DNA of 64,000 nucleotides from Rhodanobacteraceae bacterium (GTDB taxonomy: Bacteria > Pseudomonadota > Gammaproteobacteria > Xanthomonadales > SZUA-5): assembly GCA_031422315.1 (NCBI GenBank), contig JANOQN010000068.1:211928-275927 (forward strand), read 5' to 3'. The notes beneath the pieces were generated by a model, which was not told where the DNA came from, did no database searches, and worked only from the letters and a program-made list of their open reading frames with translations. Positions 21,975-46,381 of this stretch are shown here, piece by piece (within the stretch, counting starts at the first letter, position 1; every line of letters starts with the position of its first letter). The position numbers were made by a program, and so were the translations under genes.

Positions 21975-21986
21975 TTGGAAGCTCAC

Positions 21987-22123
21987 GGAACCTCTAAAAA
22001 CCCATTTTCGTCGTGAAGCTCAAAGCGAAAGAAAAATATTTCCTTATATATCAACCATATACCGCCCCAATATTTGTCTTTTGTGCCTAGCTTGACTTAG
22101 AAAATGGAGTTTTTAGAGGTTTC
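21987..22123 (+). mobile_element. MITE-like TIR element, copy 2 (unclassified family)
   Basis: TIRs GGAACCTCTAAAAAC / GTTTTTAGAGGTTTC (14 of 15 complementary). Flanking direct repeat GCTCAC (21981-21986) / GCTCAA (22124-22129). Sits between the convergent ggt and methyltransferase stops. Confidence 0.75.
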
Positions 22124-22139
22124 GCTCAATTAGCTGACT

Positions 22140-22766
22140 TTAATTACGAACTTCAAATTCAAACTCATGATCAAGCACAACGCCGCTTTTTACTCGCGTT
22201 CGCTCAACAATTGAGCGGCTGGAAAAGCCTTCGAGAACGTTTTCAAGTTCAGCTAGGCGCAAAAAAGTAAAATGTCTTTCACTGCGTTGAAGATAAAGCG
22301 GCTCATCGATACTAAGCTTCGGTGCTAGCGGATGTAAGTCGCCTTTCATGCCGACAGAATAAAAATATCCGTCTGGCTTAAGAATTCGCTTAACTTCACT
22401 GGCGATTTGAGCAAGCCCGGCAAAATCAGCGTGTAGCAGCGCTCCTCTATCAAGCACAATATCAACTGAGCCATTTAAAAATGGCAGATAGCGAAAATCA
22501 CCTTGAATAACCTGGGCATCCAAGTTAAGTTTTTTGAGCCTCGACCTCGCATAACTAACGGCGATTTTAGAATATTCGATGCCGAACGCGGTAAATCCCT
22601 CTTCAGCAAGAAACCGAAGATTATTACCGGTTCCCGATCCTAGCTCTAACACTACCGTTTGCGAACGATCCTTTTCTTTGCACGTACGCAAAACAAAAGA
22701 CACAATCTCAGTAAACGGCCAATGATTGTGCTGTAGACCTTGAGCGTATATTTTTTCCCAGCTCAT
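22140..22766 (-). CDS. Class I SAM-dependent methyltransferase
   Basis: Motif I VLELGSGTGNN; 208 aa; AT-rich relative to the backbone. Confidence 0.8.
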   Translation of the reverse strand: MSWEKIYAQGLQHNHWPFTEIVSFVLRTCKEKDRSQTVVLELGSGTGNNLRFLAEEGFTAFGIEYSKIAVSYARSRLKKLNLDAQVIQGDFRYLPFLNGSVDIVLDRGALLHADFAGLAQIASEVKRILKPDGYFYSVGMKGDLHPLAPKLSIDEPLYLQRSERHFTFLRLAELENVLEGFSSRSIVERTRVKSGVVLDHEFEFEVRN

Positions 22767-22867
22767 TGTATTTCCTTAATTAAATAAAACTCGCAAATTT
22801 CCAATTCTATTTCCTGATTATCGCTAATCCTCAGAAGGCTGCAATTATTCTAGCAACCTTTGCAACA

Positions 22868-22958
22868 CGTCATCCCCGCGAAGGCGGGGATCCAGAGCAG
22901 GTGTCAACGTCAATCGAACGATTAAGGAACCTGGATTCCCGCCTGCGCGGGAATGACG
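22868..22958. repeat. Compound REP/MITE-like element, copy 2 (91-bp archetype)
   Basis: CGTCATCCCCGCGAAGGCGGGGATCCAG ... CTGGATTCCCGCCTGCGCGGGAATGACG. The core CAGGTGTCAAC..GAACGATTAAGG is shared with copy 6. Confidence 0.85.
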
Positions 22959-23024
22959 GCTGCTGAAGATTAGCGCTAATCAGGTTCTATTTTCCCGTCA
23001 CATTCCGAACTCTGTGGGACATTA

Positions 23025-24443
23025 CTATTTTATGTTGTCACAGAAAACTGACAATCGTGCCATGCTATCTGCGGTTTTTTCAAACAAATTTTTCCGTTGA
23101 GACTCACTTAATCCCAATGGCGTAAAACGCGGGAATACTACCCCATCACCATATTGCCGACTAACGATCGCCAGTACTTTCTCTAGTTCGCTCCTTGTTG
23201 AGGTTTGAATAACCTGCTCGAACTGTAATGATTCCGAGAAAAAATGCGCGCCCGGAAGATCAAGATACCAAGGACGACCAAAACAGATAACTGGTTTTTC
23301 AACAAGCAGGGCTTCAAATCCAACCGTTCCTGCAATTGTTGCAACTAAGGTTGCTTTTGAAATCAGCTGATCCGATGGCGTGGCAATCGTCACAAAAAAC
23401 ACGTTTGGCAATAGTTCCAATCGCTTATAAAACGCAGTGTCGCGCGCGTAGTGTCGTTGCAAGGGATTTTCTTTGACTATAAGCGGGTAGTTCGGCGGCA
23501 GCCAAGCGGCGAGCGCCGCTATTGCGTTCACTTGATTCGCGAAACTGTCGCTAAACATGCGAACATTCGCCTCTGGCTCATAGTGAAGCGCAAAAAACGC
23601 GAAACGCTTAAGATGTTCAGGCGTTGCCATTTTGAAATTTGCTTGCAACGAACGATAGCGTTTTACCCGCAAATAGCGATAAAAAGCCGCTGCAGTAAAG
23701 TTTGAATCACCCAACTCTATGGCTAAGCGGAGCCAATCCCAATTTCTTCGGGTAGCTGCCAGGTATAGTCGCTGAAGAAATCCTAATTTACCTAAACTAA
23801 AAAAACCGAAAATGACAAACTGAATTCGACTAAGAAATGTTGCACGAATTGCAGGTTGTAAATCACGGATCGGTACAACGGGGCGTTCAATCAATCGATC
23901 TACCGTACTGAAATCCGCCGCACGAACAGTCTGCCAAGTCCCTGACTGCCGCGAAAACGCTTGGAATTTTTCAGGCAGTGAAGTCTGTCTAAATATCAAA
24001 ACTTTAAGCCCTCTGCGAATAGCCTCATACGCAAGAAGGTTATCAATACCCAAGTGCGGAATGTCGATCAGCCAAATTTCATCAGGCATATAGAAATCAA
24101 GCAAACCTTGAACCCGCGCATAGTGGAGTTGCGCCCAATCGTGGACGACATCGCCAATTATTGGGCCAATGCTCAGTGTATCGATTGTTGCCAACTTGTT
24201 AAGTGGCATGACTCTGCCAATACACTGGCTGTATTCCCACAGCAATTCGTCAGGAACTGCAAAAAACGCGCTACTGGCTGGCGGGATATCTTGGCCGGTA
24301 AATATTTCTTCAGTACTATGACTAGGCACATCAGGGGATTTGCCTTGCAACTGGCAAACCACATTAAAACCTTGCTGTCTCAATCCGCTGATTAATTCAC
24401 TTGGGAGATAGTACGCCCAAAATAAAACTCTTCGATCAATCAT
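23025..24443 (-). CDS. Capsule-polysaccharide-biosynthesis-like protein (family call tentative)
   Basis: The FFALHYEPEANV...PLIVKENP segment recalls Capsule_synth (KpsS/KpsC-type) proteins. Start placed at ATG 24443 (ATGATTGA overlap with the upstream stop) rather than ORF-track 24530. AT-rich. Confidence 0.6.
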   Translation of the reverse strand: MIDRRVLFWAYYLPSELISGLRQQGFNVVCQLQGKSPDVPSHSTEEIFTGQDIPPASSAFFAVPDELLWEYSQCIGRVMPLNKLATIDTLSIGPIIGDVVHDWAQLHYARVQGLLDFYMPDEIWLIDIPHLGIDNLLAYEAIRRGLKVLIFRQTSLPEKFQAFSRQSGTWQTVRAADFSTVDRLIERPVVPIRDLQPAIRATFLSRIQFVIFGFFSLGKLGFLQRLYLAATRRNWDWLRLAIELGDSNFTAAAFYRYLRVKRYRSLQANFKMATPEHLKRFAFFALHYEPEANVRMFSDSFANQVNAIAALAAWLPPNYPLIVKENPLQRHYARDTAFYKRLELLPNVFFVTIATPSDQLISKATLVATIAGTVGFEALLVEKPVICFGRPWYLDLPGAHFFSESLQFEQVIQTSTRSELEKVLAIVSRQYGDGVVFPRFTPLGLSESQRKNLFEKTADSMARLSVFCDNIK

Positions 24444-25050
24444 GTTTAAGCCAATTGGGTGGCCCAAAAATACGTTTAGTGAATCCTCGTACTCCGCTGA
24501 TGCGAATTGACGTATCCAATTTTGAAGCATACGCCATCAGCGCGCTTTGATAGCCTCTCACATAGTCTGTTTCGCAAGATTCCTGGCCGATTCGCTTTTC
24601 GTCTTGATGCACATCAATACCCGCTTCGTATCCACCCGTGCCATCCATAGGCGCACCGCAAATTATGATTTCGCGTGCGCCACAGGTGATCGCTAACCAA
24701 AGCGCGCTACCGATGCTGGAAGCGCACCGCAGCGCATCAGGCCAGTACACATCAACATCACAATCCGCAATCCGCGCGAGCGTTTTACCGCTATGTACCT
24801 CAACGTTTGGGTTAAGACTTCGCTGCCGAAACACGGCTGCTCGTTCGGGGTGTTGTGTCATCAAAAAATCAGCGCGGAGCACCGATGCGGCGTCATTGAC
24901 CGCGACCACTTTACAGCCCGGCAGGTGTCTGAGTGCGTCAGCGCATTCTTGTTGAACGCCAGAGGCGGAACCGCAGATAACAACCCGGTTCCACAGCATC
25001 TGGTTTTGAAGCCAATCTGGACCGCACTTCGCGGCCTGCATTACGGTCAT
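24436..25050 (-). CDS. DUF115/MptE-like protein (Maf-type putative nonulosonic-acid transferase; tentative)
   Basis: NRVVICGSASGV...KVVAVNDAAS...GSALWLAITCGAREIIICGAPMD pattern recalls PF01973-type proteins. Translationally coupled to the downstream gene. Confidence 0.5.
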   Translation of the reverse strand: MTVMQAAKCGPDWLQNQMLWNRVVICGSASGVQQECADALRHLPGCKVVAVNDAASVLRADFLMTQHPERAAVFRQRSLNPNVEVHSGKTLARIADCDVDVYWPDALRCASSIGSALWLAITCGAREIIICGAPMDGTGGYEAGIDVHQDEKRIGQESCETDYVRGYQSALMAYASKLDTSIRISGVRGFTKRIFGPPNWLKHD

Positions 25051-25080
25051 AAAATCCAGCCTACGGTCATAAATCCAGTC
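25042..25080. repeat. About 20-bp tandem duplication spanning the start codon of the DUF115-like gene
   Basis: TACGGTCATAAAATCCAG (25042-25059) and TACGGTCATAAATCCAG (25062-25078). Creates the upstream mini-ORF ATG ACC GTA GGC TGG ATT TTA TGA (25070..25047), whose stop overlaps the main ATG (ATGA). Confidence 0.8.
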
Positions 25081-25182
25081 AAAGTGTGTTCTAGAAACAA
25101 CCTTTAAGCATATTCGACTGGCTTTTCGAATGAAACAAGCGATGAGCCACCGTTAACGCCGCATCGATATTCAAGAGTCTCG

Positions 25183-26094
25183 CTACTGGAGAGGCTTCAG
25201 CTCGTCTTCCAAAAAACCCTCGATCACCCGCCAAGCCACATCACTTTCGCGTTTTTCATTACCGGCGAGCGCCTCGCGTCGGATCAAATAGCCGTGCCGA
25301 CCATTGGCGGATCGGTGCACACTGACGCGCTTACCGAGTAGGATCAATCGATTCAATAACAACTCGGCTTGCGATGCCGGCACAATCACATCGCGCTGGC
25401 CCTGGACGATCAAAATTGGCAAATTTGAAGCGATATGATCGAGGCCCAGCATACCTTGCCTGCTTTTGAAATTCTCCGGGCTCAACACAGGGCCGCGCCC
25501 ATAAATGCGCTGTGTCAATTCGTCTTTGCCGAGTTGATTGGTTTTTTGCAAGTAGCGATACCATATATCGATATCGGCCACGCCATAGGCGAACACGACC
25601 GCCTTAAATGAGTTCGGCTGACGCTTGGCCGCTTGCAAACTAATCAGCGCGCCGTGGCTAAAGCCGAGCAAAGCCACGCGATTCAAGTCAAGCATCGGCT
25701 CTCGTTTTAAATGCGCAAGCAGCGCCAAAACGTCATCGACTTCACCGAGTGCCACTTCAATCTGGCCGTCGGAGCCGTCTTCACCGCGATAGCTGGACCC
25801 TGCCAACGTGTAGCCCAGCCGACAAAGCTCAAGCATCCGGCGCTCGTTATTAAGGCCAACGCCGGAAACGCCGCCATGGTTGAATAAAATCAGCGGTCTT
25901 GCGCCGGGAAACTGCGCCTGATTCGCCGCGCAAAATCGGCCGTTGATTCGCAGCTCACCGCTGAGATAGCGAATACTGCTGATCTGCGGCTCGCCAGCGT
26001 GCGCGTGCAAAGCCACACTGGCAATTAGCGCAAAAAAGCCGCGAACCCACGATTTTGGGGTCAAATATCGGCACCACATCGAAAAAATAGGCAT
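25183..26094 (-). CDS. Secreted alpha/beta hydrolase (S9 / dienelactone-hydrolase-like)
   Basis: Nucleophile elbow LLGFSHGA; HGG oxyanion motif (FNHGGVSG); C-terminal DVIVP...GRHGY. Confidence 0.8.
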   Translation of the reverse strand: MPIFSMWCRYLTPKSWVRGFFALIASVALHAHAGEPQISSIRYLSGELRINGRFCAANQAQFPGARPLILFNHGGVSGVGLNNERRMLELCRLGYTLAGSSYRGEDGSDGQIEVALGEVDDVLALLAHLKREPMLDLNRVALLGFSHGALISLQAAKRQPNSFKAVVFAYGVADIDIWYRYLQKTNQLGKDELTQRIYGRGPVLSPENFKSRQGMLGLDHIASNLPILIVQGQRDVIVPASQAELLLNRLILLGKRVSVHRSANGRHGYLIRREALAGNEKRESDVAWRVIEGFLEDELKPLQ

Positions 26095-26195
26095 TTATCC
26101 CTTAACTAAAACTGCACATTTGCCTTAACTTTGGCACAATCGCGTAACAGTTGCGAACGTGATGGCGTGATGAAACTTAAAAACGGGAAACTGAT

Positions 26196-27560
26196 ATGAG
26201 TCAGACAAACAAGTTCGGCCGATTTTCCAAAGCAGTGCAAATGCTCAGTACCGCGCTAGTTGGATCGCTATGGCTAAGCCAAGCGCTCGCTGCAGGACCG
26301 GTTGGCGGAACCGTCAAAGCGATTGCCGAGCATCAGCATTTAGGCACCGCCACCTGCGCCAGCAGCACCTGCCACGGTTCGACTACGGTGTTCCCTGGCT
26401 CGAACGTGATGCAAAACGAGTTCTCAGTCTGGCAAGAAAGCGATAAACACGCGCGCGCTTACGATATTTTAAAGCAGCCAGAAAGCCAAGCGATTGCCCG
26501 CAAAATGGGCTTGGGTGATGCCACCAAAGCCAGCATTTGCTTGGATTGCCACGCCGATAACGTACCAGCGGCCAAACAGGGCGATAAATTCTTGATGGCC
26601 GATGGCGTTGGCTGCGAAGCATGCCACGGCGGCTCGGAAAACTGGATCGCATCACACGCTGCTAAAGGCGCGACGCACGCCGACAACATCAAAGCCGGCA
26701 TGTACCCAACGGATGAGCCGGTTGCGCGCGCGAAAATGTGCCTGAGCTGCCATATGGGCACCGCCGATCGCATGATTACCCACAAAATCATGGGCGCGGG
26801 CCACCCGCGTTTGCAGTTTGAGCTGGATACCTTCACCTGGATTAATCCGCATTACGAAATTGATGAAGACTACATTGCCCGCAAAGGCGAGTTTAATGGC
26901 GCACGCGATTGGGCGCTTGGACAAGGCGTTGCAGCCAAGAATCTGCTTGAGCAGCTCACGGATAGCAAAATTGCCTTCACCGGCATATTTCCAGAACTCG
27001 TATTGTTTGACTGCCACGCTTGCCATAAGAAAATGTCGGGCAATACGTGGGCATCACGCCCCAGCACCGGTCTTGGCCCTGGCGTGGTGCGTTTGAATGA
27101 TGCCAATTTACTGCTCTATCGACACGTGTTGAATCTGGTTGAACCGGCCAGCGGCAATCGCATTCGTGAGCAAACTAAAGCGCTGCACCGGGCCACCACG
27201 CTCAGTAAAGAAGCCACTTTTCAAGCCGCGAACGCCTTGAAAGCGTCGATTGAAGCCAGCTTGCCGAAAGTGTCGAGCTACCCGTTTGAAGCGAAATCAC
27301 TCGGGCGCGTTTTAGCCAGCCTAGTGCGCGACGCCGATGCCGGTGATTTCGGCGATTTCTCCGGCGCTGAACAGGCCGCGCTGGCTGCGCAATCGGTAGT
27401 CAGCGGCTTTGAAGCCGGTGGTGCAATTGATAAAGCCAAAGCCGATGCGCTAAATCGACTGGTCGATCAAATGAATGCGACGGTTGAAAATGGCGATAAC
27501 TATCAGCGCGCCCGCTTTGTGCAAAGCCTAAGAAATCTTGCAAGAGCGGCGCCCATGTAA
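26196..27560 (+). CDS. Periplasmic multihaem c-type cytochrome (c554-like family)
   Basis: Signal peptide. Four CxxCH sites (CLDCH, CEACH, CLSCH, CHACH) plus one CASSTCH (Cx4CH). Haem-free helical C-terminal half. Confidence 0.85.
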   Translation: MSQTNKFGRFSKAVQMLSTALVGSLWLSQALAAGPVGGTVKAIAEHQHLGTATCASSTCHGSTTVFPGSNVMQNEFSVWQESDKHARAYDILKQPESQAIARKMGLGDATKASICLDCHADNVPAAKQGDKFLMADGVGCEACHGGSENWIASHAAKGATHADNIKAGMYPTDEPVARAKMCLSCHMGTADRMITHKIMGAGHPRLQFELDTFTWINPHYEIDEDYIARKGEFNGARDWALGQGVAAKNLLEQLTDSKIAFTGIFPELVLFDCHACHKKMSGNTWASRPSTGLGPGVVRLNDANLLLYRHVLNLVEPASGNRIREQTKALHRATTLSKEATFQAANALKASIEASLPKVSSYPFEAKSLGRVLASLVRDADAGDFGDFSGAEQAALAAQSVVSGFEAGGAIDKAKADALNRLVDQMNATVENGDNYQRARFVQSLRNLARAAPM

Positions 27561-27608
27561 GGATAAGTTTCGGTAATATCGAAACTCGGACGGGTTAGGG
27601 AGAAGGTC

Positions 27609-28037
27609 ATGCAATCGGTACAACAAATGCTGGGCAATCGAAACAGCGTGACCTACTTCGTGCGCCCAGGCGACACCGTATTAGATGCGATCAAGCAAAT
27701 GGCCGAGCGCGGCGTCGGCGCACTGGTGGTTTTGGAAGGCGACACGCTCGTCGGCATCGTCAGCGAGCGTGACTACGCTCGCAAAATAGTCTTGCAAGGC
27801 AAAAATTCGAAAGACACTTTCGTCAAGGAAATTATGTCATCGCCAGTCATTACCGCTACGCTCACCCAGCGCGCCAACGAGTGTATGAATATCATGACCG
27901 ACAAACGCATCCGCCACATGCCAGTTGTAGATAGCGGCAAAGTCGTCGGCATGCTTTCAATTGGCGACATGCTCAAAGTAGTGATTGAGCACCTCAAACG
28001 CGAAAATGAGCAGTTGGCGCAATATATAAATAGTTGA
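27609..28037 (+). CDS. CBS-pair domain protein
   Basis: 142 aa with two CBS repeats (GALVVLEGDTLVGIVSERD; HMPVVDSGKVVGMLSIGD). Confidence 0.85.
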   Translation: MQSVQQMLGNRNSVTYFVRPGDTVLDAIKQMAERGVGALVVLEGDTLVGIVSERDYARKIVLQGKNSKDTFVKEIMSSPVITATLTQRANECMNIMTDKRIRHMPVVDSGKVVGMLSIGDMLKVVIEHLKRENEQLAQYINS

Positions 28038-28074
28038 GTGTTGCTAGCGCCCCTTCTCGACTTAGCTGTCACAT

Positions 28075-28117
28075 CCTCGTCATCCCCGCGAAGGCGGGGA
28101 TCCAGAACAGGTGTCAG
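28075..28117. repeat. REP/MITE family, solo left arm (copy 3)
   Basis: CCTCGTCATCCCCGCGAAGGCGGGGATCCAGAACAGGTGTCAG. No matching right arm found downstream. Confidence 0.7.
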
Positions 28118-28200
28118 ATCACGGCAATTTAAATGAGCCTAACTAGCGTTTTAATACTGGCATCTGGCGGCATTGATGGACGAAAATCAAAACAAGTCAA

Positions 28201-29628
28201 ATGAATAAATTATTAAATACGCCTGAGTCAAGCGCCCGTCCGCTCATCACCGTCTACGTACCCTCACACGCTTACGGACACTTTTTAGCGCAGAGTTTAA
28301 CCAGCGTTTTTAACCAAAGCCTCAGCAGCTGGGAGCTGATCGTCATCTCCGATGGCAGCATAGACGCAACGTTGAAGATCGCGCGGCATTTTGCCGCGCG
28401 CGCGCCGGAAAAAGTCCGAATCGTTTCCAATGCAACCCCTATGGGCCTTCGCACTTGCGCGAATACCGCGCTGGAAATGGCACGCGGCGATTATTTTATG
28501 CGTTTGGATGCTGACGATTTTCTTGATGAGAACGCGCTGCTGGTATTAAGCCACTATTTGGACACGCACCCAGATGTCGGCTTGGTTTACCCGAATTGGA
28601 CTTACGTGGATGAAGCTGGCAAAGCACTGGGCGTGGAATATCGAAAGCGTGCCGGCTCTGAGGATAAAACCCAGGATTTACCCGCACACGGCGCTTGTAC
28701 GTTGATTCGGAAGCGTGTTTTAAAAGCCGTGGGTGGCTATGACACGCGTTTTAAAGCGCAGGACGGGCACGAGCTGTGGCTGAAAGCGCTGCACCAGTTT
28801 GGCATTGGTAACGTGGCAACGCCGCTATTTTTCTATCGTCAACACGGGCAATCCATGTCGGTAGATTCAGGCGCGCTGCTGGCATCACGCCGCGCAATAA
28901 AAGCGCATTTAGCCGAGCAAAGGCGTGGCGCGGTGAATCCGCGTATCGCCATTATTGTGCCAGTCAAAAGTGGCGCGATCGGCAGCACTCATGCACTGGC
29001 AAATCCGGCGTTGGCAAATCTGGCGGGCAAAGCGCTGCTGGATTACACGCTCGATAGCCTAGTCGGGCACGCTGACTTTGCTTGCACGCTGGTCAGCACC
29101 GATGATGCAGCGGTGCTCGCGCACTGCAAAAACCGCGGTGATGTTTTACTGCACGCGCGCCCGGCCTACTTGTCGGATACCCAAGTGCATCTAGCGCAAG
29201 TGCTGCAAGCTGCGGTGCAGCACTTAGAAGCTGAGCTTGCAATTTACCCCGATATAGTCGTGCTGCTCAGCATCAACACGCCGCTGCGTCGGCTCGAACA
29301 TATTCAAGAAGCGATCAACACCTTATTGCTGTATCAAGTCGATGAAGTGTTGAGCACCTGGGAAGATTTAGGCCTGTACTACCGGCACGCCCAGCAGGGC
29401 ATGCAAGCTGTCAATCCAGGCATGTTGCAGGGTTTGCGACTAGAGCGCGAAGCGCTGTACGCCTGCAATGGCTCGATTCACGCGCACTGGCGGGAAAATA
29501 TGGGCAACCCGAACCAAACTGCCCGTATCGGCCATGTCATCATGACTAAAACCGAGAGTTTGATAGCGAAAAAACCTGAGGATTTGCGGCTATTGGAGTT
29601 GATTTTGAGCGCTGAAATTGTTCGTTGA
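28201..29628 (+). CDS. Fusion protein: GT2 glycosyltransferase plus CMP-sugar (NeuA-like) cytidylyltransferase-like domain
   Basis: N-terminus ITVYVPSHAY...ELIVISDGSID, DxD as RLDADD (GT2). C-terminus RIAIIVPVKSG...LVSTDD...VVLLSINTPLR...NGSIH (CTP_transf_3-like). Confidence 0.8.
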   Translation: MNKLLNTPESSARPLITVYVPSHAYGHFLAQSLTSVFNQSLSSWELIVISDGSIDATLKIARHFAARAPEKVRIVSNATPMGLRTCANTALEMARGDYFMRLDADDFLDENALLVLSHYLDTHPDVGLVYPNWTYVDEAGKALGVEYRKRAGSEDKTQDLPAHGACTLIRKRVLKAVGGYDTRFKAQDGHELWLKALHQFGIGNVATPLFFYRQHGQSMSVDSGALLASRRAIKAHLAEQRRGAVNPRIAIIVPVKSGAIGSTHALANPALANLAGKALLDYTLDSLVGHADFACTLVSTDDAAVLAHCKNRGDVLLHARPAYLSDTQVHLAQVLQAAVQHLEAELAIYPDIVVLLSINTPLRRLEHIQEAINTLLLYQVDEVLSTWEDLGLYYRHAQQGMQAVNPGMLQGLRLEREALYACNGSIHAHWRENMGNPNQTARIGHVIMTKTESLIAKKPEDLRLLELILSAEIVR

Positions 29629-29668
29629 AACCCAACGCGCAGTCGACTTTTCGTGCAGTTCGGCCCAA

Positions 29669-29886
29669 CTTCGTCATTCGATTTTATTGGCATCTCAGCC
29701 CGACCTCGTCATTCTAAATTGCTGGCAACTCAGCCTCACCTCGTCATTCCCGCGCAGGCGGGAACCCAGTACAGGTGTCAGCGTTCTCACCCGCATTCCA
29801 AGCACTGCGAACTGCGCATTTTTAACCTGATGAGTGCGCTAGTAGTTTTGCGAGCCTGGGTTCCCGCCTGCGTGGGAATGACGAGG
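29669..29886. repeat. Composite repeat: about 2.3 tandem 35-bp units leading into REP/MITE copy 4
   Basis: Units at 29669-29703 and 29704-29738 (about 70 % identical, each starting CYTCGTCATTC). A third unit start runs into the left arm CCTCGTCATTCCCGCGCAGGCGGGAACCCAG. Right arm CCTGGGTTCCCGCCTGCGTGGGAATGACGAGG ends at 29886. Confidence 0.8.
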
Positions 29887-29948
29887 TAGCGTTACTAGTG
29901 GTTCAATGACTAAACTATCGCACTTATTAGTCGGGCCACCCATTTCGC

Positions 29949-31013
29949 ATGATCGCAGCAGCACCTCATTCTCTCGCCCAAATTTCATCAACCTGGCAAG
30001 GTGTATTCGGCCCGCTGCTGATTGCTGAAATCGGCGGCAACCATGAGGGCGATTTTGCCTACGCAGAACGCCTGACTGATTTGGCGATTGCATCCGGTGC
30101 TGATGTCATCAAATTCCAGCTTTATCGCGGCGAATCCTTAGTCAGCAAGGTTGAGGCGCCAGATCGCTATGCACATTTCCAGCGTTTTGAGCTGAGCCAG
30201 GATCAACACATTGCATTAGCCAAGCGCTGCCAGGCAGCAGGTAAGCAATATTTGGCCTCGGTTTGGGATTTGTCGATGCTGGAATGGATCGATCCGTACT
30301 TGCCGTTTTACAAAATCGGCTCAGGCGATTTAACCGCCTACCCGCTACTGAAAGCGTTTGCCCAGCGCGGCAAACCGATTGTGCTATCGACCGGGCTAGC
30401 CAGCTTGAATGATGTGCAAGCCGCTGTGGCCTACCTGCAATCCGTCAATGTGCGCTATCAAGACCCGAACCAGCTGGCGATTTTACAGTGTACCTCGATG
30501 TATCCAAACGCCGATGCTGACGTCAATTTGGCTGTGATGGACACGCTGCGTGCTGCTACAGATCTGACGATTGGCTATTCCGACCACACGATTGGCGACT
30601 TTGCGCTACTCATAGCCGCTGCGCGCGGTGCGCAGGTGCTGGAATTTCATTTTACCGATGATCGATCCGGCAAAACCTTTAGAGATCACGCAATATCACT
30701 GACGGCCGTTGAAGTGCGCGAGCTGTGCGAGCGCTTAAACCAAATGCGCTCGTTAATCGGCAGCGCGGAGAAAATCCCGCTTGCGGCCGAAATCAGCAGC
30801 GGCCACGTACAAAGCTTTCGCCGCGCGGTGTATTGCAAGGTCGATTTAAAGGCGGGGGAAATTTTGCAAGCTGAGCACTTGTGCGTGCTGCGCCCGAATC
30901 ACGGTATTGATGCGCGCGCGTTTGAACAAGTGATCGGCCGGCGCGTGGCGCACGATACGCCGGCATTTGCGGCGCTTGAGCTGGACAATGCGCAAATTCA
31001 GGGCGAGCCATGA
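29949..31013 (+). CDS. NeuB/SpsE-family nonulosonic acid synthase (PEP-condensing)
   Basis: LIAEIGGNHEGDFAYAERLTDLAIASGADVIKFQ; C-terminal SAF domain RRAVYCKVDLKAGEILQAEHLCVLRP. Confidence 0.9.
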   Translation: MIAAAPHSLAQISSTWQGVFGPLLIAEIGGNHEGDFAYAERLTDLAIASGADVIKFQLYRGESLVSKVEAPDRYAHFQRFELSQDQHIALAKRCQAAGKQYLASVWDLSMLEWIDPYLPFYKIGSGDLTAYPLLKAFAQRGKPIVLSTGLASLNDVQAAVAYLQSVNVRYQDPNQLAILQCTSMYPNADADVNLAVMDTLRAATDLTIGYSDHTIGDFALLIAAARGAQVLEFHFTDDRSGKTFRDHAISLTAVEVRELCERLNQMRSLIGSAEKIPLAAEISSGHVQSFRRAVYCKVDLKAGEILQAEHLCVLRPNHGIDARAFEQVIGRRVAHDTPAFAALELDNAQIQGEP

Positions 31014-31726
31014 TTGCGCAAACCAACTTGCAGCTTTATGCGCAGCTGCGCAAGGCAGGCCAATCGCAAGCAGCGCTAGCGCAAGTGCATGCGGCCTATC
31101 AGTTTGCCGCTGCACTTTGTTTTCCGCTCTTTCGCGGCTCCGGCAAGCCGTTTAGCTGCCACCTAGTTGGCGTTGCTAGCCTATGCGCGCTGGTAAATTG
31201 TAAAGCCGATGTGCTGGTCGCCGCGCTGCTGCACGCAAGCTATCAAGCCCGCGTATCTGACACCGATAGCGAATCGTTTGCCGATACAAGATTCAGCTAC
31301 GCGCGTCAATTTGGCGATGCCAGCGAACGTTTGGTATACGGCTGCTACATCGCTAGCTTTGATGCTAGAGCGCATGCAGGGCAAGCGTTGCCGGAGCCAG
31401 ATTTGTTGACCGAACAAGAATCAAAATCCGTCCGCTTAATTCTTTTGGCTGACGCCCTTGAAGACGCGCTGGATGCAGGTTTGGCGCTGCATGGACAAGC
31501 TGGCGATAGCGCCGAGCAGCGCGGCAGTGCGGCTTGGCGATTGGCACGCATGCAGGCAGAGCGCGATGATTTCTTAGCCGAGGCAAACGCGCTCGATTGC
31601 CCGGAATTCGCCAGCCTTTTTGACGCGCTGCTCGCCGAAAACGCCGCGCTACGATCAAACGATCAATTTACTGGCCCATTCACTGGCCCATTTACTGGCC
31701 AATACAGCAGTTTCCGTGCTAGCTGA
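31010..31726 (+). CDS. Hypothetical protein, HD-like N-terminal region (DUF6817-like, tentative) with C-terminal FTGP x3 tail
   Basis: ATGA overlap with the neuB-like stop. SGKPFSCHLVGVASL...AALLHASYQ. Ends FTGPFTGPFTGQYSSFRAS. Confidence 0.55.
   Translation: MIAQTNLQLYAQLRKAGQSQAALAQVHAAYQFAAALCFPLFRGSGKPFSCHLVGVASLCALVNCKADVLVAALLHASYQARVSDTDSESFADTRFSYARQFGDASERLVYGCYIASFDARAHAGQALPEPDLLTEQESKSVRLILLADALEDALDAGLALHGQAGDSAEQRGSAAWRLARMQAERDDFLAEANALDCPEFASLFDALLAENAALRSNDQFTGPFTGPFTGQYSSFRAS
31667..31702 (+). repeat. 12-bp tandem repeat x3 (TTYACTGGCCMA)
   Basis: TTTACTGGCCCA TTCACTGGCCCA TTTACTGGCCAA. Encodes FTGP x3 and lies 41 nt upstream of the next gene's ATG (31743). Confidence 0.9.
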
Positions 31727-31742
31727 CATTAGCTTGAGCATC

Positions 31743-32762
31743 ATGCGCTGCCCGCTGTGTTCAAGCCCGGCGCACAAGCCTGCAGCAGCAGCGCAAGCGA
31801 ACTTGTACTCCGAGCAGCTTGCACTGCTGACGGATACCTCTGAAGCCGAATTATTAGCGCAATTTTCAAATGTGGAATGCGCGCAGTGCAGCTTGATTTA
31901 TAAGCAGCGCTGGTTTCAGCCTGAGCTATTGCAGCGGCTGTTTCAAGGCGCAGTGGCCGCACATCCACGCGGCTGGGACGTGATCTCCGAGCGGTTCTCT
32001 TTTACCAATTTCAGCCACGAGCTGGGTTTGTTTGAGTTAGCTGTCCGAAACAGTGATGCGCTTAATACTGCGCGCTATCAGCGCGCGCTCAGCGCATTGG
32101 TTGATTCCATGCCCGAATCCGCAGCGGCGCAAAAGCGCGAGTTGGTCAGCTTGATTGCCGCAAAAAATATCTCGGCGCTGCAGGCGCAATTGCCGAATCT
32201 TAAAAATCACTTCACCGCGCCTTTTCCTTTTAAGCGCTTCGCCGGATTTTCAGCACCAGAACTATGGCACTGGTTTGAATCGCAAATTGGGCCGATTGCC
32301 CGCTACGCCGAGCTAGGCTGCCCGCTGTGGGGTTTTCTCAGCGCACCCGTTGCAAACAGCGCCAGGCGCAGCATGATTACCCGAACTGAGGCAAATTATT
32401 GGGGCAAAAGCTGCATGCAAAATGGTCAAACCTGCATGGCGGCGCTGCAGCAACGCAGCGATGTTCAAAGTGTGGATTTTGCAGAATTGCCGAATGATTG
32501 TTTTGATGTGATTGGGCTGTATCAATACCTAGATCACGTGCAAGAGCCAATGCCATTGCTGCGATCAGCCCTAAAAGCCAGCAGGGCCGTCGCACTAATC
32601 GTCGATTCAGCTGAACTGCCGTGCGCAATCCAGCACCTGAGCGCCTGGAGCCATAGCGCAGTAAACGAAGCAGGCGCGCGGCTCAATTGCCGAGTAAGCA
32701 CCGGGTTTGAGCCAATTGCGCGCTCTGGCAATGCGCTTTATCTGCTGCAAAAATATGAATAA
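31743..32762 (+). CDS. Hypothetical protein: N-terminal zinc ribbon plus weak methyltransferase-like C-terminal half
   Basis: MRCPLCSS...VECAQCS (CxxC...CxxC). YAELGCPLWG and DVIGLYQYLDHVQEPMPLL recall class I MTase motifs. Start trimmed from ORF-track 31620 to ATG 31743. Confidence 0.55.
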   Translation: MRCPLCSSPAHKPAAAAQANLYSEQLALLTDTSEAELLAQFSNVECAQCSLIYKQRWFQPELLQRLFQGAVAAHPRGWDVISERFSFTNFSHELGLFELAVRNSDALNTARYQRALSALVDSMPESAAAQKRELVSLIAAKNISALQAQLPNLKNHFTAPFPFKRFAGFSAPELWHWFESQIGPIARYAELGCPLWGFLSAPVANSARRSMITRTEANYWGKSCMQNGQTCMAALQQRSDVQSVDFAELPNDCFDVIGLYQYLDHVQEPMPLLRSALKASRAVALIVDSAELPCAIQHLSAWSHSAVNEAGARLNCRVSTGFEPIARSGNALYLLQKYE

Positions 32763-32798
32763 ATTCGGCGGCCGATAGTTGTGAAAACCGTAAACAAC

Positions 32799-33485
32799 AT
32801 GGGAATTTTGGTTTTCGCGCGCAGCAGTTCAGTGCGCCTGCCCGGCAAAGTGCTGCTTGATTTTGCCGGCATGCCGCTGGTGCTTTGGATTCTCAAACGC
32901 GCTATGTCCACTCATGCACCGATAGCGCTCGCTTGCTCTACCGAACCCAGCGACGATGAATTGGCAAACGTTGTGCAGCGCGCGGGCTTTGAGGTTTACC
33001 GGGGCGCGCTTGATGATGTGCTGGCGCGCGCGATTCATGCCTGCGAGCATTTTTCCTGGACTCACTTCGCTAGGCTGTGCGCAGATCGGCCATTTTTCAA
33101 CATTGATGAAATTCGCACGGGATTAGCACTTGCCAACCATCAACCCATGCTTGATCTCATCAGCAATAATTTGGCGGGCGCTGCGTCAGCTGGATTGACG
33201 ACCGAAATTATTCGACTTAATGCGCTCAAACAAATCGCCGAGTCAAGCGCGCTGAGCAAGCACCGCGAACACCTAAGCAGCTATTTTTATGATCATCCAG
33301 CCGCATTTAAATGCCAACCGTTTGCAGTAACTCAATCGCCCGCCGAGCTTATGGCGCAGCGCTTCGCAGTTGACACACCGGAAGATTATCAACGCTTGCG
33401 CCAATTAGCGGCTGGGCACTTACCCGGCGTTAGTCTTGCCGCGCTTTTAAAGCAAAGCGCGATGGATAACTTTCATGCAAGATAA
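32799..33485 (+). CDS. SpsF/FlmC-type cytidylyltransferase (CTP_transf_3 family)
   Basis: MGILVFARSSSVRLPGKVLLDFAGMPLV N-terminus is typical of this family. An alternative GTG start lies at 32781. Confidence 0.8.
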   Translation: MGILVFARSSSVRLPGKVLLDFAGMPLVLWILKRAMSTHAPIALACSTEPSDDELANVVQRAGFEVYRGALDDVLARAIHACEHFSWTHFARLCADRPFFNIDEIRTGLALANHQPMLDLISNNLAGAASAGLTTEIIRLNALKQIAESSALSKHREHLSSYFYDHPAAFKCQPFAVTQSPAELMAQRFAVDTPEDYQRLRQLAAGHLPGVSLAALLKQSAMDNFHAR

Positions 33486-34533
33486 ACCTGACTTGTTAAT
33501 TGCCACGCTGCCGCACAATCTGTCTGGCCCGCAGCTTTATGTAGCGCAATTAATGGCGAACGCAAAACTGCATGCCGCCTTTAACCCTGAAGTATGGGCA
33601 GTTGAAGACTTATACCGAGGTTATTTGGGGAAATGGCGTTTATTGCAAGCCTGCAAAGCTAAGATTGCGGGGCGTAAAAACATCGTTGTGTATATTAATC
33701 AAGATTTAAGCTTAGTGACCTGGCTGAGTTTATGCTTTAGATTAAGCGGCATTCGAAAAATAGCCGTGCATTCGCACGCATCGTCATTTTGTGCGCCTAA
33801 CAATGCGCTGACTAGGAAAATTTATCAACTTATTCTAAATGCATGCACTGCTACGGCAATTGCGGTATCACAGGGCGCGGCAGATGCCATGTTCGGGAAC
33901 CGGGCGGCAAAACGCTGCACGCTTATTCCTGCACTGATAGATTTCAATGTGCTTGCAAAGCAAAGCGATAGCGCGCGTCAGCGCATAACTGAGGATTTTA
34001 CTTTTGCCTGCATAGGCCGAATGTCACCCGAAAAAAACCAAAAGCTGGCAATTTCCGCCTTTGCGCAATTAATAAAACAAAACCAACGCGCGCATTTGTT
34101 GCTCATCGGTGATGGAGATTTAGCCTATGAATGCGATTTAATTGAATTCGCTAAATCGTTATGTGTCGAAAAATACGTTACAATTCAACGAGCTAGCGTA
34201 AATATAGCAGCAATATACCGAAATCAAATTGACGCGGTATTAGTGCCTTCACTATTTGAAGGGCAAAACCGTGTTGTGGCAGAGGCGCAGTTTTTTGGAT
34301 TGCCAGTAGCAACGTCAATTGGAGTGCCTGATATTGCATTTTTAGACAAACGAAACGCCTATTCTGAAATTCCACTTGAGCTCAATAGCTGGAGAAAAGT
34401 AATGACAGCAATGCTTAACGGCAAACCAGCTAGGTTGAGTATGCAGATCGATGCGGCGCGCCATTCGCCGCTTTCAATTGAAAACGGAATTGAAATTCTG
34501 GTCGATACATTAAATAACGCTAATTCTAATTAA
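33475..34533 (+). CDS. GT4 (group 1) glycosyltransferase
   Basis: GRMSPEKN, PSLFEGQNRVVAEAQFFGLPV (E-x7-E). AT-rich. 11-nt overlap with the upstream gene. Confidence 0.85.
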   Translation: MQDKPDLLIATLPHNLSGPQLYVAQLMANAKLHAAFNPEVWAVEDLYRGYLGKWRLLQACKAKIAGRKNIVVYINQDLSLVTWLSLCFRLSGIRKIAVHSHASSFCAPNNALTRKIYQLILNACTATAIAVSQGAADAMFGNRAAKRCTLIPALIDFNVLAKQSDSARQRITEDFTFACIGRMSPEKNQKLAISAFAQLIKQNQRAHLLLIGDGDLAYECDLIEFAKSLCVEKYVTIQRASVNIAAIYRNQIDAVLVPSLFEGQNRVVAEAQFFGLPVATSIGVPDIAFLDKRNAYSEIPLELNSWRKVMTAMLNGKPARLSMQIDAARHSPLSIENGIEILVDTLNNANSN

Positions 34534-34540
34534 CAAAAAT

Positions 34541-35737
34541 ATGAAATTACTTATAGTCGAACCCAATGCAGATGGGCATCATTTTTTGCCATATTTGCAG
34601 TATTTCGCAATTGCCGCGCAGCAGGCAGGAATATGCGTCGAATTGATGACAACCACAGGTGCCGCCGCGCATCCAGCAATGGCGATGGTGCAAAGCACGC
34701 TTTTAAAACCTATGACGGTGGTACTCATGCCGGATGAGCCGTCCATTCAATCAAGCAGCACGTTAGCGCTATTTGCGCGCCAGCGTGAAGCATATAAAAC
34801 GGTTGCAGCAGGCTTTAACGCAATAGCTAAAGCAGATAGGCCTGACCATATTATGTTGATGTGTATGGACGGATTTGATCGTTGGTTTGCATTATTCGGT
34901 TCGCCGTTTGGTAAAATTCCCTACTCGGGGTTGCATATTGGTCTTAAATTCCATCTCAATAAACTGGGTTTTGGACCTTCAGGTCGGCTTGCGCTCGTTA
35001 ACCAATGGCTCTTTCGTCGATTGGTCAATCAAAAAGCGCTGTATGTTGCGGCGAGCATTGATGAAAGCCTGCTAAGTTTTCACGCAAATCAACCCAAGGT
35101 GTTTAATAAGCTGCGCTTTGTGCCTGATCCAGGTGAGGTTACGCTGACCGAAAGCCCTGACGCGGCGCGCGCCGCATTGGCTATGCCAAGCGGCAAATTT
35201 GCACTCATGGTTTACGGCGCTGTTGGCATGCGGAAAAACCTCGGTTTGCTTTTGCAATGCGCGGCGCAGATGCCCGAAGTGATGCTCATACTCGCCGGGC
35301 GTATGGAAATAGAAGCACGCCAGCTATGCCAAAATTCACCATTCGCCGAAACCTTGCGCGCTGAGAATCGATTCCTGTGTTTTGATCAGTTTATTGAACC
35401 CGCCCTGGAATCCAGGCTTTTTGCCGCTGCTGACTGCGTTTGGCTGTGCTACTCGCCCGATTTTTACGGGCAAAGCGCCGTGCTTGCACAAGCAGCTTCG
35501 GCGGGCAAGCCAATATTGGGGCGCAGCGGCGGGCAAATTGGCTACATGACCGAATTGCACAAGCTTGGCCCCACTGCCGCGCCGGATGACGCTGCAGACA
35601 TCTGCGCCAAATTGCGGCAATTGATTGATGATGTCGCGCTGCGCCAATTGTATTCAGACAATGCCGCCAAGTTCGCGCCAACCCGCAACGCTAGCGCATT
35701 TAGCGCGGCGATCCTGCGCTGCATTCCGGGCTATTGA
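34541..35737 (+). CDS. Glycosyltransferase-like protein (GT-B fold, tentative)
   Basis: MKLLIVEPNADGHHF N-terminus; C-terminal YGQSAVLAQAASAGKPILG resembles the GT-B donor-binding region. Confidence 0.65.
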   Translation: MKLLIVEPNADGHHFLPYLQYFAIAAQQAGICVELMTTTGAAAHPAMAMVQSTLLKPMTVVLMPDEPSIQSSSTLALFARQREAYKTVAAGFNAIAKADRPDHIMLMCMDGFDRWFALFGSPFGKIPYSGLHIGLKFHLNKLGFGPSGRLALVNQWLFRRLVNQKALYVAASIDESLLSFHANQPKVFNKLRFVPDPGEVTLTESPDAARAALAMPSGKFALMVYGAVGMRKNLGLLLQCAAQMPEVMLILAGRMEIEARQLCQNSPFAETLRAENRFLCFDQFIEPALESRLFAAADCVWLCYSPDFYGQSAVLAQAASAGKPILGRSGGQIGYMTELHKLGPTAAPDDAADICAKLRQLIDDVALRQLYSDNAAKFAPTRNASAFSAAILRCIPGY

Positions 35738-35748
35738 TTTCCGAGCGG

Positions 35749-44773: not shown

Positions 44774-46381
44774 CTACATCCTAAACACCCCAAACCGCCC
44801 CTTTTCAATCGGCGCATTCAACGCCGCCGACAGTGCTAAACCCAGCACGCGACGCGTATCAGCTGGATCAATCACGCCGTCATCCCATAATCTGGCGCTG
44901 GCGTAGTAGGGGTGGCCTTGGCGTTCGTATTGATCTTTAATCGGGGCTTTGAACTGCGTTTCCTCATCACTTGACCACGCTTTTCCGTTGGCTTCTAAGC
45001 CGTCGCGCTTAACGGTGGCAAGTACGCTGGCGGCTTGTTCGCCGCCCATGACCGAAATGCGCGCGTTTGGCCACATCCAGAGCATGCGTGGGCTGTAGCC
45101 GCGCCCGCACATGGCGTAGTTGCCGGCGCCGAAGCTGCCGCCGATTAAGAAGGTGAATTTCGGTACGTGTGAACACGCCACGGCGGTGACCATTTTCGCG
45201 CCGTCTTTGGCGATGCCGGCGTTTTCGTATTTGCGCCCGACCATAAATCCGGTGATGTTTTGCAAAAACACCAGCGGGATGTTGCGCTGGTTGCAAAGCT
45301 CAATAAAGTGCGCGCCTTTGAGTGCGCTTTCGGCGAATAAAATGCCGTTGTTCGCCACAATGCCGACCGGGTAGCCGTACACGTGCGCGAAGCCGCACAC
45401 CAGCGTTTTTCCGTAGCGCGCTTTGAATTCTTGCAGCTCGGAACCATCGACAATCCGCGCGATTACTTCTCTAACGTCATACGGCGTGCGGGTGTCTTTT
45501 GGCACTACGCCGTAAAGTTCGCGCGCATCGTAAATTGGCGGGGTAGGGGCGCTGATTTTGACGTCAAGCTGTTTTTTACGGTTTAAGTGCCGCACGATTT
45601 CACGGGCGATGCTTAGCGCGTGCGCGTCGTCTTCGGCGAAATGATCGGCGACGCCGGATTGGCTGGTGTGTACGTCGGCGCCGCCTAGACTTTCGGCGTC
45701 AACCACTTCACCGGTTGCGGCTTTAACAAGCGGCGGGCCGCCCAAAAATATCGTGCCCTGTTCTTTGACGATGATGGTTTCATCGCTCATGGCTGGCACG
45801 TAAGCGCCGCCAGCGGTGCAAGAACCCATGACCACTGCGATTTGCGGGATGTTCTCGGCGGACATGCGGGCTTGGTTGTAGAAAATCCGGCCAAAGTGTT
45901 CGCGATCAGGAAACACCTCATCTTGCAGCGGTAAAAATGCCCCGCCTGAGTCCACCAAATACACGCAGGGCAGGTGGTTCTCGAGTGCGATTTCCTGTGC
46001 GCGAAGATGTTTTTTGATGGTCATCGGGAAATAGGTGCCACCTTTTACCGTAGCGTCGTTTGCCAGCACCATGACTTCCTGATCGTGGATGCGCCCGATG
46101 CCGCTAATCAGGCCGGCACAGGGCGCACCACCCTCGTACATGCCGTGCGCGGCGAGTGGTGATAGCTCCAGAAACGGCGAGCCGGCGTCAAGCAGGGCGC
46201 GGATGCGCTCACGCGGAAGCAATTTACCGCGTTCGGTGTGTTTTTTGCGGGCTGATTCGCCGCCGCCTTCTGCGGTCTTTTTCAAGGTGGCGCGCAGATC
46301 ATCTACCGCTGCTTGCAGCACGCGCGCGTTTTCTAAAAACAGCGCGGATTGGGTATCAACTTGGCTTTGAATAACCGGCAT
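44774..46381 (-). CDS. Acyl-CoA carboxylase carboxyltransferase (beta) subunit, methylcrotonyl-CoA carboxylase type
   Basis: 535 aa, typical length and sequence for MccB/LiuB ([23 protein letters not shown]). Confidence 0.85.

Follow-up and report, generated by a model that had tools for sequence, protein, structure and literature searches.

Two blocks of genes in a 64,000-nt stretch of a Rhodanobacteraceae genome (the window; GenBank assembly GCA_031422315.1, contig JANOQN010000068.1, positions 211,928 to 275,927), at window positions 22140-25050 and 28201-35737, probably constitute, together with a gene pair on another contig (C41) that encodes a DUF4910 protein and a FemAB-like acyltransferase, one system for a sialic-acid-like (ulosonic acid) sugar. 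As to substrate, product, step order and acceptor, we infer that the set would most likely make a cytidine monophosphate (CMP)-activated, methylated ulosonic acid and place it on a surface glycan. Its core is a cassette in which the usual synthase and CMP-activating enzyme are accompanied by three proteins without an assigned reaction, which points to unexplored sugar chemistry. The source is a metagenome-assembled genome (MAG) of 85 contigs and 5.08 Mb, 95.7% complete with 0.37% contamination; the whole stretch is contained in two freshwater-sediment metagenome runs, from which the DNA may itself derive, and there are no RNA runs among the runs listed as containing it.

An earlier note, made from the letters of the window, had described a fragmented island for nonulosonic-acid (NulO) glycans, with two cytidylyltransferase homologues and one synthase, that lacked the usual precursor enzymes. 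Our gene inventory, based on an open reading frame (ORF) listing and Pfam/NCBIfam scans of the window, recovered every gene named there at its place and bore out that count.

A cassette found in at least five phyla

The core genes of the window all lie on the forward strand. They encode a family 2 glycosyltransferase (GT2) fused to a divergent cytidylyltransferase-like domain (GT2f, 28201-29628), a NeuB-like phosphoenolpyruvate (PEP)-condensing synthase (29949-31013), an HD-like protein (31010-31726), a protein of 339 amino acids (aa) that combines a zinc ribbon with a class I methyltransferase fold (ZnMT, 31743-32762), and an SpsF/KdsB-type cytidylyltransferase (32781-33485). The neighborhoods of ZnMT homologues in other genomes revealed a cassette of GT2f, NeuB, HD, ZnMT, DUF4910 (with DUF2172 and HTH_47) and CTP_transf_3, rare but spread over five phyla or more. 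When one genome was scanned per species, 25 loci emerged, and several metagenome contigs were found besides. Carriers comprise Bacteroidota (Chitinophagaceae, Psychroflexus and Nitritalea), Planctomycetota, MAGs labelled Mycobacterium, Gammaproteobacteria (Wenzhouxiangella, Lysobacterales and Pseudoxanthomonas) and the alphaproteobacterial Aestuariivirga, with cultured carriers including Aestuariivirga litoralis KCTC 52945, Wenzhouxiangella isolates and Nitritalea halalkaliphila LW7. In a Methylomirabilota locus and a Pelagibacteraceae locus, the ZnMT gene alone was seen.

Family counts over 30 loci, obtained by BLAST mapping and clustering of all ORFs, are minima, as many loci end at contig ends, and they are not independent, as related genomes are included. 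Read in this way, ZnMT occurs in all 30 loci, DUF4910 and the CTP_transf_3 enzyme in 27 each, NeuB in 26, GT2f in 23 and the HD-like protein in 22, followed by accessory families: the FemAB-like Acetyltransf_6 protein (15), the methyltransferase MT1 (11), the capsule-synthesis-like protein CapS (10), an ABC exporter (7) and the glycosyltransferase GT4a (5). No dehydratase, aminotransferase or epimerase family recurred in at least 5 of the 30 loci, save one generic short-chain dehydrogenase/reductase (SDR) in five of them, and beyond the families counted here the loci yielded only this SDR and overlapping-frame artefacts.

Gene fusions also tie core members together. Natural NeuB-HD fusions (P0082, P0124, P0150, P0153 and P0154, the first located within the cassette) and NeuB-CTP_transf_3 fusions (P0140, P0152 and P0161) are independent evidence that the synthase, the HD-like protein and the cytidylyltransferase act in one pathway. 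A fusion of NeuB with a class I methyltransferase also occurs (P0061). Separately, stop-to-stop frames in four loci (L036, L046, L049 and L053) suggest a possible DUF4910-CTP_transf_3 fusion. A related but distinct cassette stands in Blastochloris sulfoviridis (L065, VWPL01000038.1), with a CTP_transf_3-NeuB fusion, a hexapeptide acetyltransferase, Ldh_2, a GFO/IDH/MocA oxidoreductase, a TylF methyltransferase, a second CTP_transf_3 and several GT2, and with no ZnMT, HD or DUF4910. The methyltransferase beside its CTP-NeuB fusion was considered as a relative of ZnMT and rejected (hhalign probability 0.7%).

The synthase matches PF03102 at 211 bits (cut-off 22.1) over profile positions 3-241 of 241 and carries a SAF/AFP domain. 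Aligned to the Neisseria meningitidis NeuB (2wqp/1xuu), it retains E25, E234, both metal histidines and R314, and the aligned motifs read EIGGNHEG, KIGSGD, SDHT, EFHFT and VLRPNHG. In KIGSGD, E134 has become D, as it has in 29% of environmental NeuBs (PMC8208679). Judged by these residues, the synthase is intact and looks functional; it is 53-65% identical to cassette NeuBs of other phyla, and its clade at identities of at least 60% comprises more than 120 clusters. The cytidylyltransferase at 32781-33485 (PF02348, 64.3 bits against a cut-off of 22.6) keeps an intact N-terminal CTP-binding loop, ARSSSVRLPGK (FARSSSVRLPGK; pattern ARxxSxRLPGK), scores under the KdsB and PseF equivalog cut-offs, and is predicted to make a CMP-sugar. 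In GT2f, the glycosyltransferase part matches PF00535 (E 2e-23) and the C-terminus (residues 268-381) matches CTP_transf_3 at 25.4 bits (cut-off 22.6; E 1.5e-5); though conserved, this C-terminal domain has no ARxxSxRLPGK loop.

Genes in three places and the history of the site

The genes attributed to the system lie in three places. The left block of the window, on the reverse strand, holds the accessory MT1, a class I S-adenosylmethionine-dependent methyltransferase (22140-22766; Methyltransf_25/31/11, E ~1e-18); CapS, a KpsC/KpsS-like (Capsule_synth) protein; and a 204-aa protein without a known family (orf204, 24436-25050). Comparison with a 470-aa orthologue on a related metagenome contig (L057) places the likely start of CapS at 24440, so that the gene would span 23025-24440 (471 aa) within an ORF of 23025-24530. 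It matches PF05159 at 43.1 bits (cut-off 20) through its C-terminal part, at profile positions 139-266 of 310, and weakly the BFO_1060 family of Tannerella transferases for pseudaminic/legionaminic acid (Pse/Leg), at 17.8 bits, far under the cut-off of 200; we regard it as a candidate transferase for the CMP-ulosonic acid. For orf204, the reading frame proposed in the earlier note stands, and its DUF115/Maf-like label, alone among those of the note, went unconfirmed: Pfam and NCBIfam were blank, and PF01973 gave no match at E ≤0.01. The protein is possibly MptE/Maf-like, since an atlas feature search linked it, at 0.92, to a phage cluster with MptE-like annotation in 34% of members, which serves as a lead only.

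Homologues of MT1 (33-45% identity, many of the BLAST matches being partial) adjoin the cassette in 11 other loci, those of CapS in 10, and those of orf204 (42% identity) in two Wenzhouxiangella genomes. Left-block genes are contiguous with the core in L037, L040, L047, L053 and L012 and, for orf204, in the two Wenzhouxiangella loci; given that the left block stands beside the core elsewhere, the two halves of the window therefore belong to one functional set. On the other side of the core, the forward strand continues with two accessory genes, the family 4 glycosyltransferase (GT4) GT4a (33475-34533; Glyco_trans_1_4 and Glycos_transf_1), whose homologues (36-40% identity) adjoin the cassette in five loci, and GT4b (34541-35737), a divergent GT-B/GT4-like glycosyltransferase with weak GT4 matches and homologues (35-41% identity) in L040, L047 and L014.

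The third piece is the DUF4910 gene, which is absent from its usual slot between ZnMT and the cytidylyltransferase, where the window has a gap of 18 nt. A genome-wide search located it on C41, followed by an Acetyltransf_6 (FemAB-like) gene (C41:63374-65829, which is L062:11375-13830). The encoded protein (L062:11375-12760) has DUF4910, DUF2172 and HTH_47 all present in order (317, 113 and 77 bits) and is 54-64% identical to nearly all cassette copies, with two outliers at 38% and 49% and the best match, at 64%, in the close relative L058; homologues of the acyltransferase are present in 15 loci. The pair sits between an FKBP isomerase and a TonB-dependent receptor gene, with a REP-like 30-mer at the left junction. 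All six same-genus genomes keep the ABC-F and FKBP flanks at 68-72% DNA identity and do not keep the pair, which is an insertion into a genus-shared backbone. Of the GTDB family's 27 species genomes, the source genome is the only one with ZnMT and likewise the only one with DUF4910, so that their co-occurrence within the family counts as a single event; NeuB-family genes occur in three of the 27.

Between the two window blocks, from orf204 to GT2f, lie three genes unrelated to the glycan set, encoding an alpha/beta hydrolase, a multihaem cytochrome (26196-27560) and a CBS protein. They are the sole parts of the 22-36 kb region with a DNA-level match to same-genus genomes, which agrees with the backbone identity given to them by the earlier note. 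Its further claim, that they interrupt the island, does not hold for a recent island, because the trio stands directly upstream of GT2f-NeuB-HD-ZnMT in three related metagenome contigs (L057, L058 and L059) and because the synonymous divergence (dS) of the core genes from L057 equals that of the backbone. Rather, the backbone trio is flanked by glycan modules. The cytochrome protein is 97%, 92% and 82% identical in these three contigs, against 72-78% in same-genus species genomes. L057 shows the full window layout, left block included, whereas L058 has DUF4910 within its cassette and L059 has none at its cassette. The gap between ggt and the hydrolase gene is a variable slot. In L058 (2628-3244), a Phd(PhdYeFM)/ParE toxin-antitoxin pair occupies it in place of MT1-CapS-orf204.

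Every island gene is under purifying selection. Relative to L057, ratios of nonsynonymous to synonymous divergence (dN/dS) are 0.09-0.22 throughout, with 0.12 for both MT1 and orf204, while dS is 0.65-0.96 for core genes, 0.66-0.90 for the backbone and 1.2-1.65 for the AT-rich left block. Together with the shared layout, these values indicate that the core cassette has long occupied this site in the sub-lineage and has been kept by selection. The compositional mosaic claimed for the island is real but narrower than proposed. The GC counts given for single 60-nt lines were exact (19/60 at 23761-23820 and 40/60 at 46081-46140), yet the AT-rich portion consists only of MT1 (GC 0.437), CapS (0.453) and GT4a (0.438), whereas the core NeuB-HD-ZnMT-CTP genes, at 0.53-0.56, are near the genome value of 0.534. 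The AT-rich accessory genes seem to have been added later or to change faster.

Could the island instead be what decay has left of a larger glycan locus, no longer functional and split by rearrangements and by insertions of repetitive extragenic palindromic (REP) elements? REP elements, or elements resembling miniature inverted-repeat transposable elements (MITEs), do sit at every module junction. A MITE-like element with terminal inverted repeats (I4; 21986-22124) separates ggt from the left edge of the island and has copies elsewhere in the genome at 83-87% identity. The three REP elements reported earlier were all located: one between MT1 and CapS (22868-22958; repeat families D1, D2 and I2), whose two 28-nt arms are inverted and which has many copies in the source genome and its relatives; a half copy between the CBS gene and GT2f (28078-28116; family D1, 97% identical to 22868-22906); and a full element between GT2f and the NeuB-like gene (29738-29887; inverted repeat I1, with 32-nt arms that are 97% complementary). 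Further in line with decay, the genes occupy three places, DUF4910 is gone from its usual slot, and no exporter was found. However, all reading frames are intact, the low dN/dS values hold for every gene at dS distances of 0.65-1.65, L057 has the same layout, and the relocated DUF4910 is itself intact and, as noted, closest to the L058 cassette copy. We thus consider decay highly improbable. The three-way split is more instructive as a case of a glycan pathway that can stay under selection though physically scattered, for which cluster-based pathway prediction should allow.

A few observations on the surroundings stand apart from the glycan set. The multihaem cytochrome far exceeds its neighbors in conservation (97%/92% protein identity and dN/dS of 0.018/0.05 for L057/L058), with the adjacent hydrolase 78%/69% identical in the same two contigs. 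A second AT-rich patch (53569-56603, GC 0.44) bears no relation to the glycan genes; its products are a reprolysin-like M12B metallopeptidase of 571 aa and a 434-aa FG-GAP repeat protein. A promoter and terminator scan of 21900-36100 returned sites no commoner than in shuffled sequence.

Precursor genes and the partner proteins of the synthase

In keeping with the absence of precursor enzymes that had been claimed for the window, Pfam scans of most of its other large ORFs showed only housekeeping or secreted-protein genes and turned up no epimerase, dehydratase, sugar aminotransferase, flippase or exporter, and no set of 4,6-dehydratase, aminotransferase, N-acetyltransferase and nucleotide-sugar hydrolase stands beside the synthase there. 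A survey of the whole genome likewise found no complete canonical neuraminic (Neu), Leg or Pse cluster. The island NeuB is the only NeuB-family gene found, and CTP_transf_3 genes number three, of which the third, on C22 (175 bits), is presumably kdsB. Searches of the 95.7%-complete genome for Epimerase_2 (PF02350; NeuC/LegG/WecB), NanE (PF04131) and GlcNAc 2-epimerase/AGE (PF07221) returned no match; therefore, none of these three known sources of ManNAc or ManNAc-6-P appears to be present. Epimerase_2 was also not found in two other carriers, a Wenzhouxiangella and Aestuariivirga litoralis. Given a self-contained core and three carriers without Epimerase_2, the aldose is likely to be a common metabolite or a sugar phosphate.

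The alternative closest to textbook biochemistry is an ordinary legionaminic- or neuraminic-type NulO, with a precursor supplied by scattered genes and with the HD-like protein replacing the hydrolase step of LegG, NeuC or PseG. The genome does hold a single PglF/WbpM-like dehydratase (C64) and a single strong DegT aminotransferase (C13), which with an acetyltransferase could supply such a precursor, and DegT and PglD-like genes adjoin the cassette in some carrier loci. The HD fold family cleaves nucleotide phosphate esters, and a hydrolase step directly before the synthase would suit the NeuB-HD fusions. Curated hidden Markov model cut-offs, used to place the synthase relative to NeuB/LegI and PseI, cut both ways: it scores higher on the former (TIGR03569, 261 bits) than on the latter (TIGR03586, 193.3 bits), but misses both equivalog cut-offs (399.65 and 340.25 bits, respectively) by a wide margin. 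Moreover, the DegT gene stands beside a TauD dioxygenase, an aldo-keto reductase and a GT2, and the PglF-like gene stands alone beside panBC, neither of them next to sugar-acid genes; no 2-epimerase of known type was found; and no dehydratase or aminotransferase family recurs in at least 5 of the 30 carrier loci apart from the generic SDR. On balance, an ordinary NulO seems unlikely.

The earlier note had offered a choice, with either the precursor genes lying elsewhere or two unknown genes (31010-31726 and 31743-32762) replacing canonical steps in a non-standard NulO route. The two are not exclusive, and the DUF4910 and FemAB-like acyltransferase genes do lie elsewhere. The supposed unknowns have recognizable folds, a Rel/SpoT-like HD domain and a zinc-ribbon class I methyltransferase, respectively, and constantly accompany this NeuB clade from phylum to phylum. 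Such constant partnership fits a non-standard route, in which they may replace canonical steps.

Specifically, the HD-like protein has weak HD_4 and DUF6817 matches in Pfam, and its sequence aligns to the Rel/SpoT hydrolase domain. Its predicted model (mean predicted local distance difference test, pLDDT, of 93.1) is nearest to SpoT (7qpr; Z 19.0, root-mean-square deviation [rmsd] 3.5 Å, 181 residues aligned), followed by Rel, small alarmone hydrolases and Mesh1; every one of these is a phosphohydrolase. Across 22 aligned family members, H51, H75, D148 and H161 are invariant and A76, Y78 and Q79 nearly so (at least 90%), such that the dyad reads H75-A76 in place of H-D, and the Rel/SpoT Glu-Asp pair reads Y78-Q79. 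By analogy with the phosphorylated route of animals and Bacteroides, we roughly put a phosphatase acting on the synthase product at somewhat less than an even chance, and a nucleotide-sugar hydrolase that would replace NeuC, LegG or PseG is, by the same rough reckoning, doubtful. The 3' end of this gene contains a 12-bp, three-copy tandem repeat (31667-31702, encoding FTGPFTGPFTGQ) that is an insertion unique to the window among 18 aligned homologues (the others read LR-SG.YSS) and sits 41 nt upstream of the ZnMT start.

That start is the ATG at 31743. ZnMT has no Pfam model, and its relatives form only 46 clusters among 5.8 billion proteins, all unnamed. A profile search of 1.84 billion representatives retrieved 332 at E ≤0.001 and 68 at E ≤1e-30, which makes this cassette protein a member of a family of a few hundred sequences among nearly two billion. 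Of its zinc-ribbon cysteines, C46 and C49 are invariant and C3 and C6 nearly so (at least 90%), and the motifs E190-x-G-C-P-x-W-G (ExGCPxWG) and QYLDH..P are invariant. The AlphaFold model (pLDDT 92.9) comprises a zinc ribbon and a class I methyltransferase fold, with sub-threshold zinc-ribbon Pfam matches in agreement and sub-threshold Methyltransf_23 matches in 14 of 31 members. Its best structural match is TcaB9 (3ndi; Z 15.8, rmsd 3.7 Å, 225 residues aligned, spanning residues 1-339), and KijD1 has the top TM-score among the Foldseek matches listed. Hence, ZnMT is predicted, from its modelled fold, to be a TcaB9/KijD1-like zinc-ribbon methyltransferase.

A sequence of steps can be hypothesized for the preferred reading, a single system for a methylated CMP-ulosonic acid. 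First, the NeuB-like synthase would condense PEP with an aldose, or an aldose phosphate, from a source other than NeuC, PseBCHG or LegBCHG. Second, the HD-like protein, fused to the synthase in some organisms, would carry out a neighboring step, most likely the removal of phosphate from the product or, alternatively, the freeing of the sugar from a nucleotide sugar. Third, ZnMT would methylate the sugar, with MT1 possibly adding a second methyl group. Fourth, DUF4910 and the FemAB-like protein might remodel or acylate it (N- or O-acyl, a guess in line with PMC4000134). The SpsF-type enzyme would then make the CMP-sugar, and finally GT2f, the KpsC/S-like CapS and perhaps orf204 would transfer it to a surface glycan that the two GT4 enzymes help to build.

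Several points weigh against this reading. No cassette member has a known substrate or product, and DUF4910 lacks the peptidase active site (PMC4000134). The link between C41 and the window rests on binning and genus-level synteny, and since the genome is a MAG of 85 contigs at 95.7% completeness, the absences are provisional. DegT, PglD-like or SDR genes lie near the cassette in some carrier loci, and a nucleoside diphosphate (NDP)-sugar precursor could come from genes outside it. The window yielded no flippase, polymerase or dedicated exporter; across the genome, the search was for the cassette-linked ABC exporter, for which only generic nucleotide-binding-domain matches and no specific orthologue emerged. 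Further, the loss of the dyad Asp and of the Rel/SpoT Glu-Asp pair means that hydrolase activity of the HD-like protein is not assured. The sole characterized enzyme reported to match DUF6817/HD_4, SmaX, is an Fe(II)-dependent, C-C-cleaving oxygenase without the dyad Asp, which acts on a peptide and is paired with an iron/2-oxoglutarate (Fe/2OG) hydroxylase (PMC12186529).

On the SmaX precedent, the HD-like protein might be a mononuclear-iron oxygenase, performing a C-C cleavage or oxidation that makes the synthase substrate or reshapes the product, in which case the end product would not be a classical nine-carbon NulO. HD_4 and DUF6817 are the only two families that SmaX matches, both proteins lack the dyad Asp, and their histidines are spaced 24 residues apart (H51/H75 here, H39/H63 in SmaX), with D148 versus N143 at the third ligand position; H51, H75 and D148 would form a 2-His-1-carboxylate triad. 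This comparison is drawn from family names and residue numbers in the paper, however, and the closest solved structures are all phosphohydrolases, with SpoT, at a Z of 19, foremost. Nor is an Fe/2OG partner hydroxylase conserved in the cassette. As an account of the whole system, it is quite unlikely; for the HD-like protein taken by itself, a SmaX-like oxygenase is, on a rough estimate, likewise unlikely, and the remainder of these rough estimates goes to some other activity or a non-catalytic partner.

A bolder variant of the single-system reading, which we consider improbable, is that the cassette is a self-contained route to a new CMP-ulosonic acid, in which the H-A HD protein acts beside the synthase and a TcaB9-like C-methyl branch gives a skeleton of more than nine carbons. 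If true, it would provide a first genetic handle on the kind of “higher-carbon” CMP-ulosonic acids that mass spectrometry has revealed in environmental bacteria and for which a pathway is not known (SugarBase preprint). Magnetospirillum, in which the same preprint reports CMP-linked C10 ulosonic acids that lack an assigned pathway, is not among the ZnMT carriers found, and the link to C10 ulosonic acids is therefore one of analogy only.

Comparison with known systems

To our knowledge, the known pathways to sialic-acid-like sugars all start with nucleotide-sugar tailoring. Such sugars shape bacterial surface encounters with phages, predators and hosts. With the canonical NeuC-NeuB-NeuA, PseBCHGIF and LegBCHGIF systems, the genes described here share a NeuB synthase with its SAF/AFP domain and catalytic residues, a CTP_transf_3 enzyme, and glycosyltransferases in one locus. 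They differ in that no hydrolyzing 2-epimerase, no dehydratase/aminotransferase/acetyltransferase set and no PseG were found, and the synthase falls under the equivalog cut-offs. Instead, the constant partners are an HD-like protein, a zinc-ribbon methyltransferase and DUF4910.

A second point of comparison is the Neu5Ac-9-P/Kdn-9-P route of animals and Bacteroides thetaiotaomicron, in which a synthase is followed by a phosphatase and then a CMP-synthetase, the phosphatases being of the HAD family. Common to both would be a synthase, a dedicated phosphohydrolase (here a candidate) and a CMP-synthetase, with no NDP-sugar tailoring genes needed, which would explain why the cassette is self-contained. 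The candidate here, however, is Rel/SpoT-like HD with a degenerate dyad rather than a HAD phosphatase, and no NanE that would give ManNAc-6-P was found. The Rel/SpoT/Mesh1 enzymes and SmaX, in turn, share with the HD-like protein the HD_4/DUF6817 matches, the histidines 24 residues apart, the loss of the dyad Asp (SmaX) and the Rel/SpoT fold at Z 19. The former have H-D and E-D where this family has H-A and Y-Q, and the latter has a peptide substrate and an Fe/2OG partner.

Like the sugar C-3-methyltransferases TcaB9 and KijD1, ZnMT has a zinc ribbon of four cysteines at its N-terminus, helices in its middle part, a class I SAM fold and the ExGC..G motif. Identity is only ~13%, ZnMT has no match to Pfam Methyltransf_13/14, and TcaB9 uses dTDP-4-keto sugars, which the cassette has no genes to make. 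CapS, for its part, resembles the KpsC/KpsS beta-Kdo transferases and the Tannerella forsythia Pse/Leg transferases (Tanf_01245/BFO_1060), passing Capsule_synth and weakly matching BFO_1060, but by its C-terminal part only. Both groups of transferases use CMP-activated ulosonic acid donors.

The set as a whole works like a nonulosonic-acid cluster, and part of its neighborhood is already in the literature. Das et al. (2014) noted the proximity of DUF4910 (CA_C2195), SpsE and SpsF without assigning a reaction (PMC4000134). In the literature searched, we came upon no account of HD and ZnMT as partners, of the fusions or of a split layout. What the two neighborhoods have in common is an M28-like DUF4910/DUF2172/HTH_47 protein linked to a NeuB-family synthase, a nucleotidyltransferase, methylases and glycosyltransferases. 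What sets the present one apart is that the HD-like and zinc-ribbon methyltransferase partners are not listed in that study (PMC4000134), and that DUF4910 is here unlinked from the cassette.

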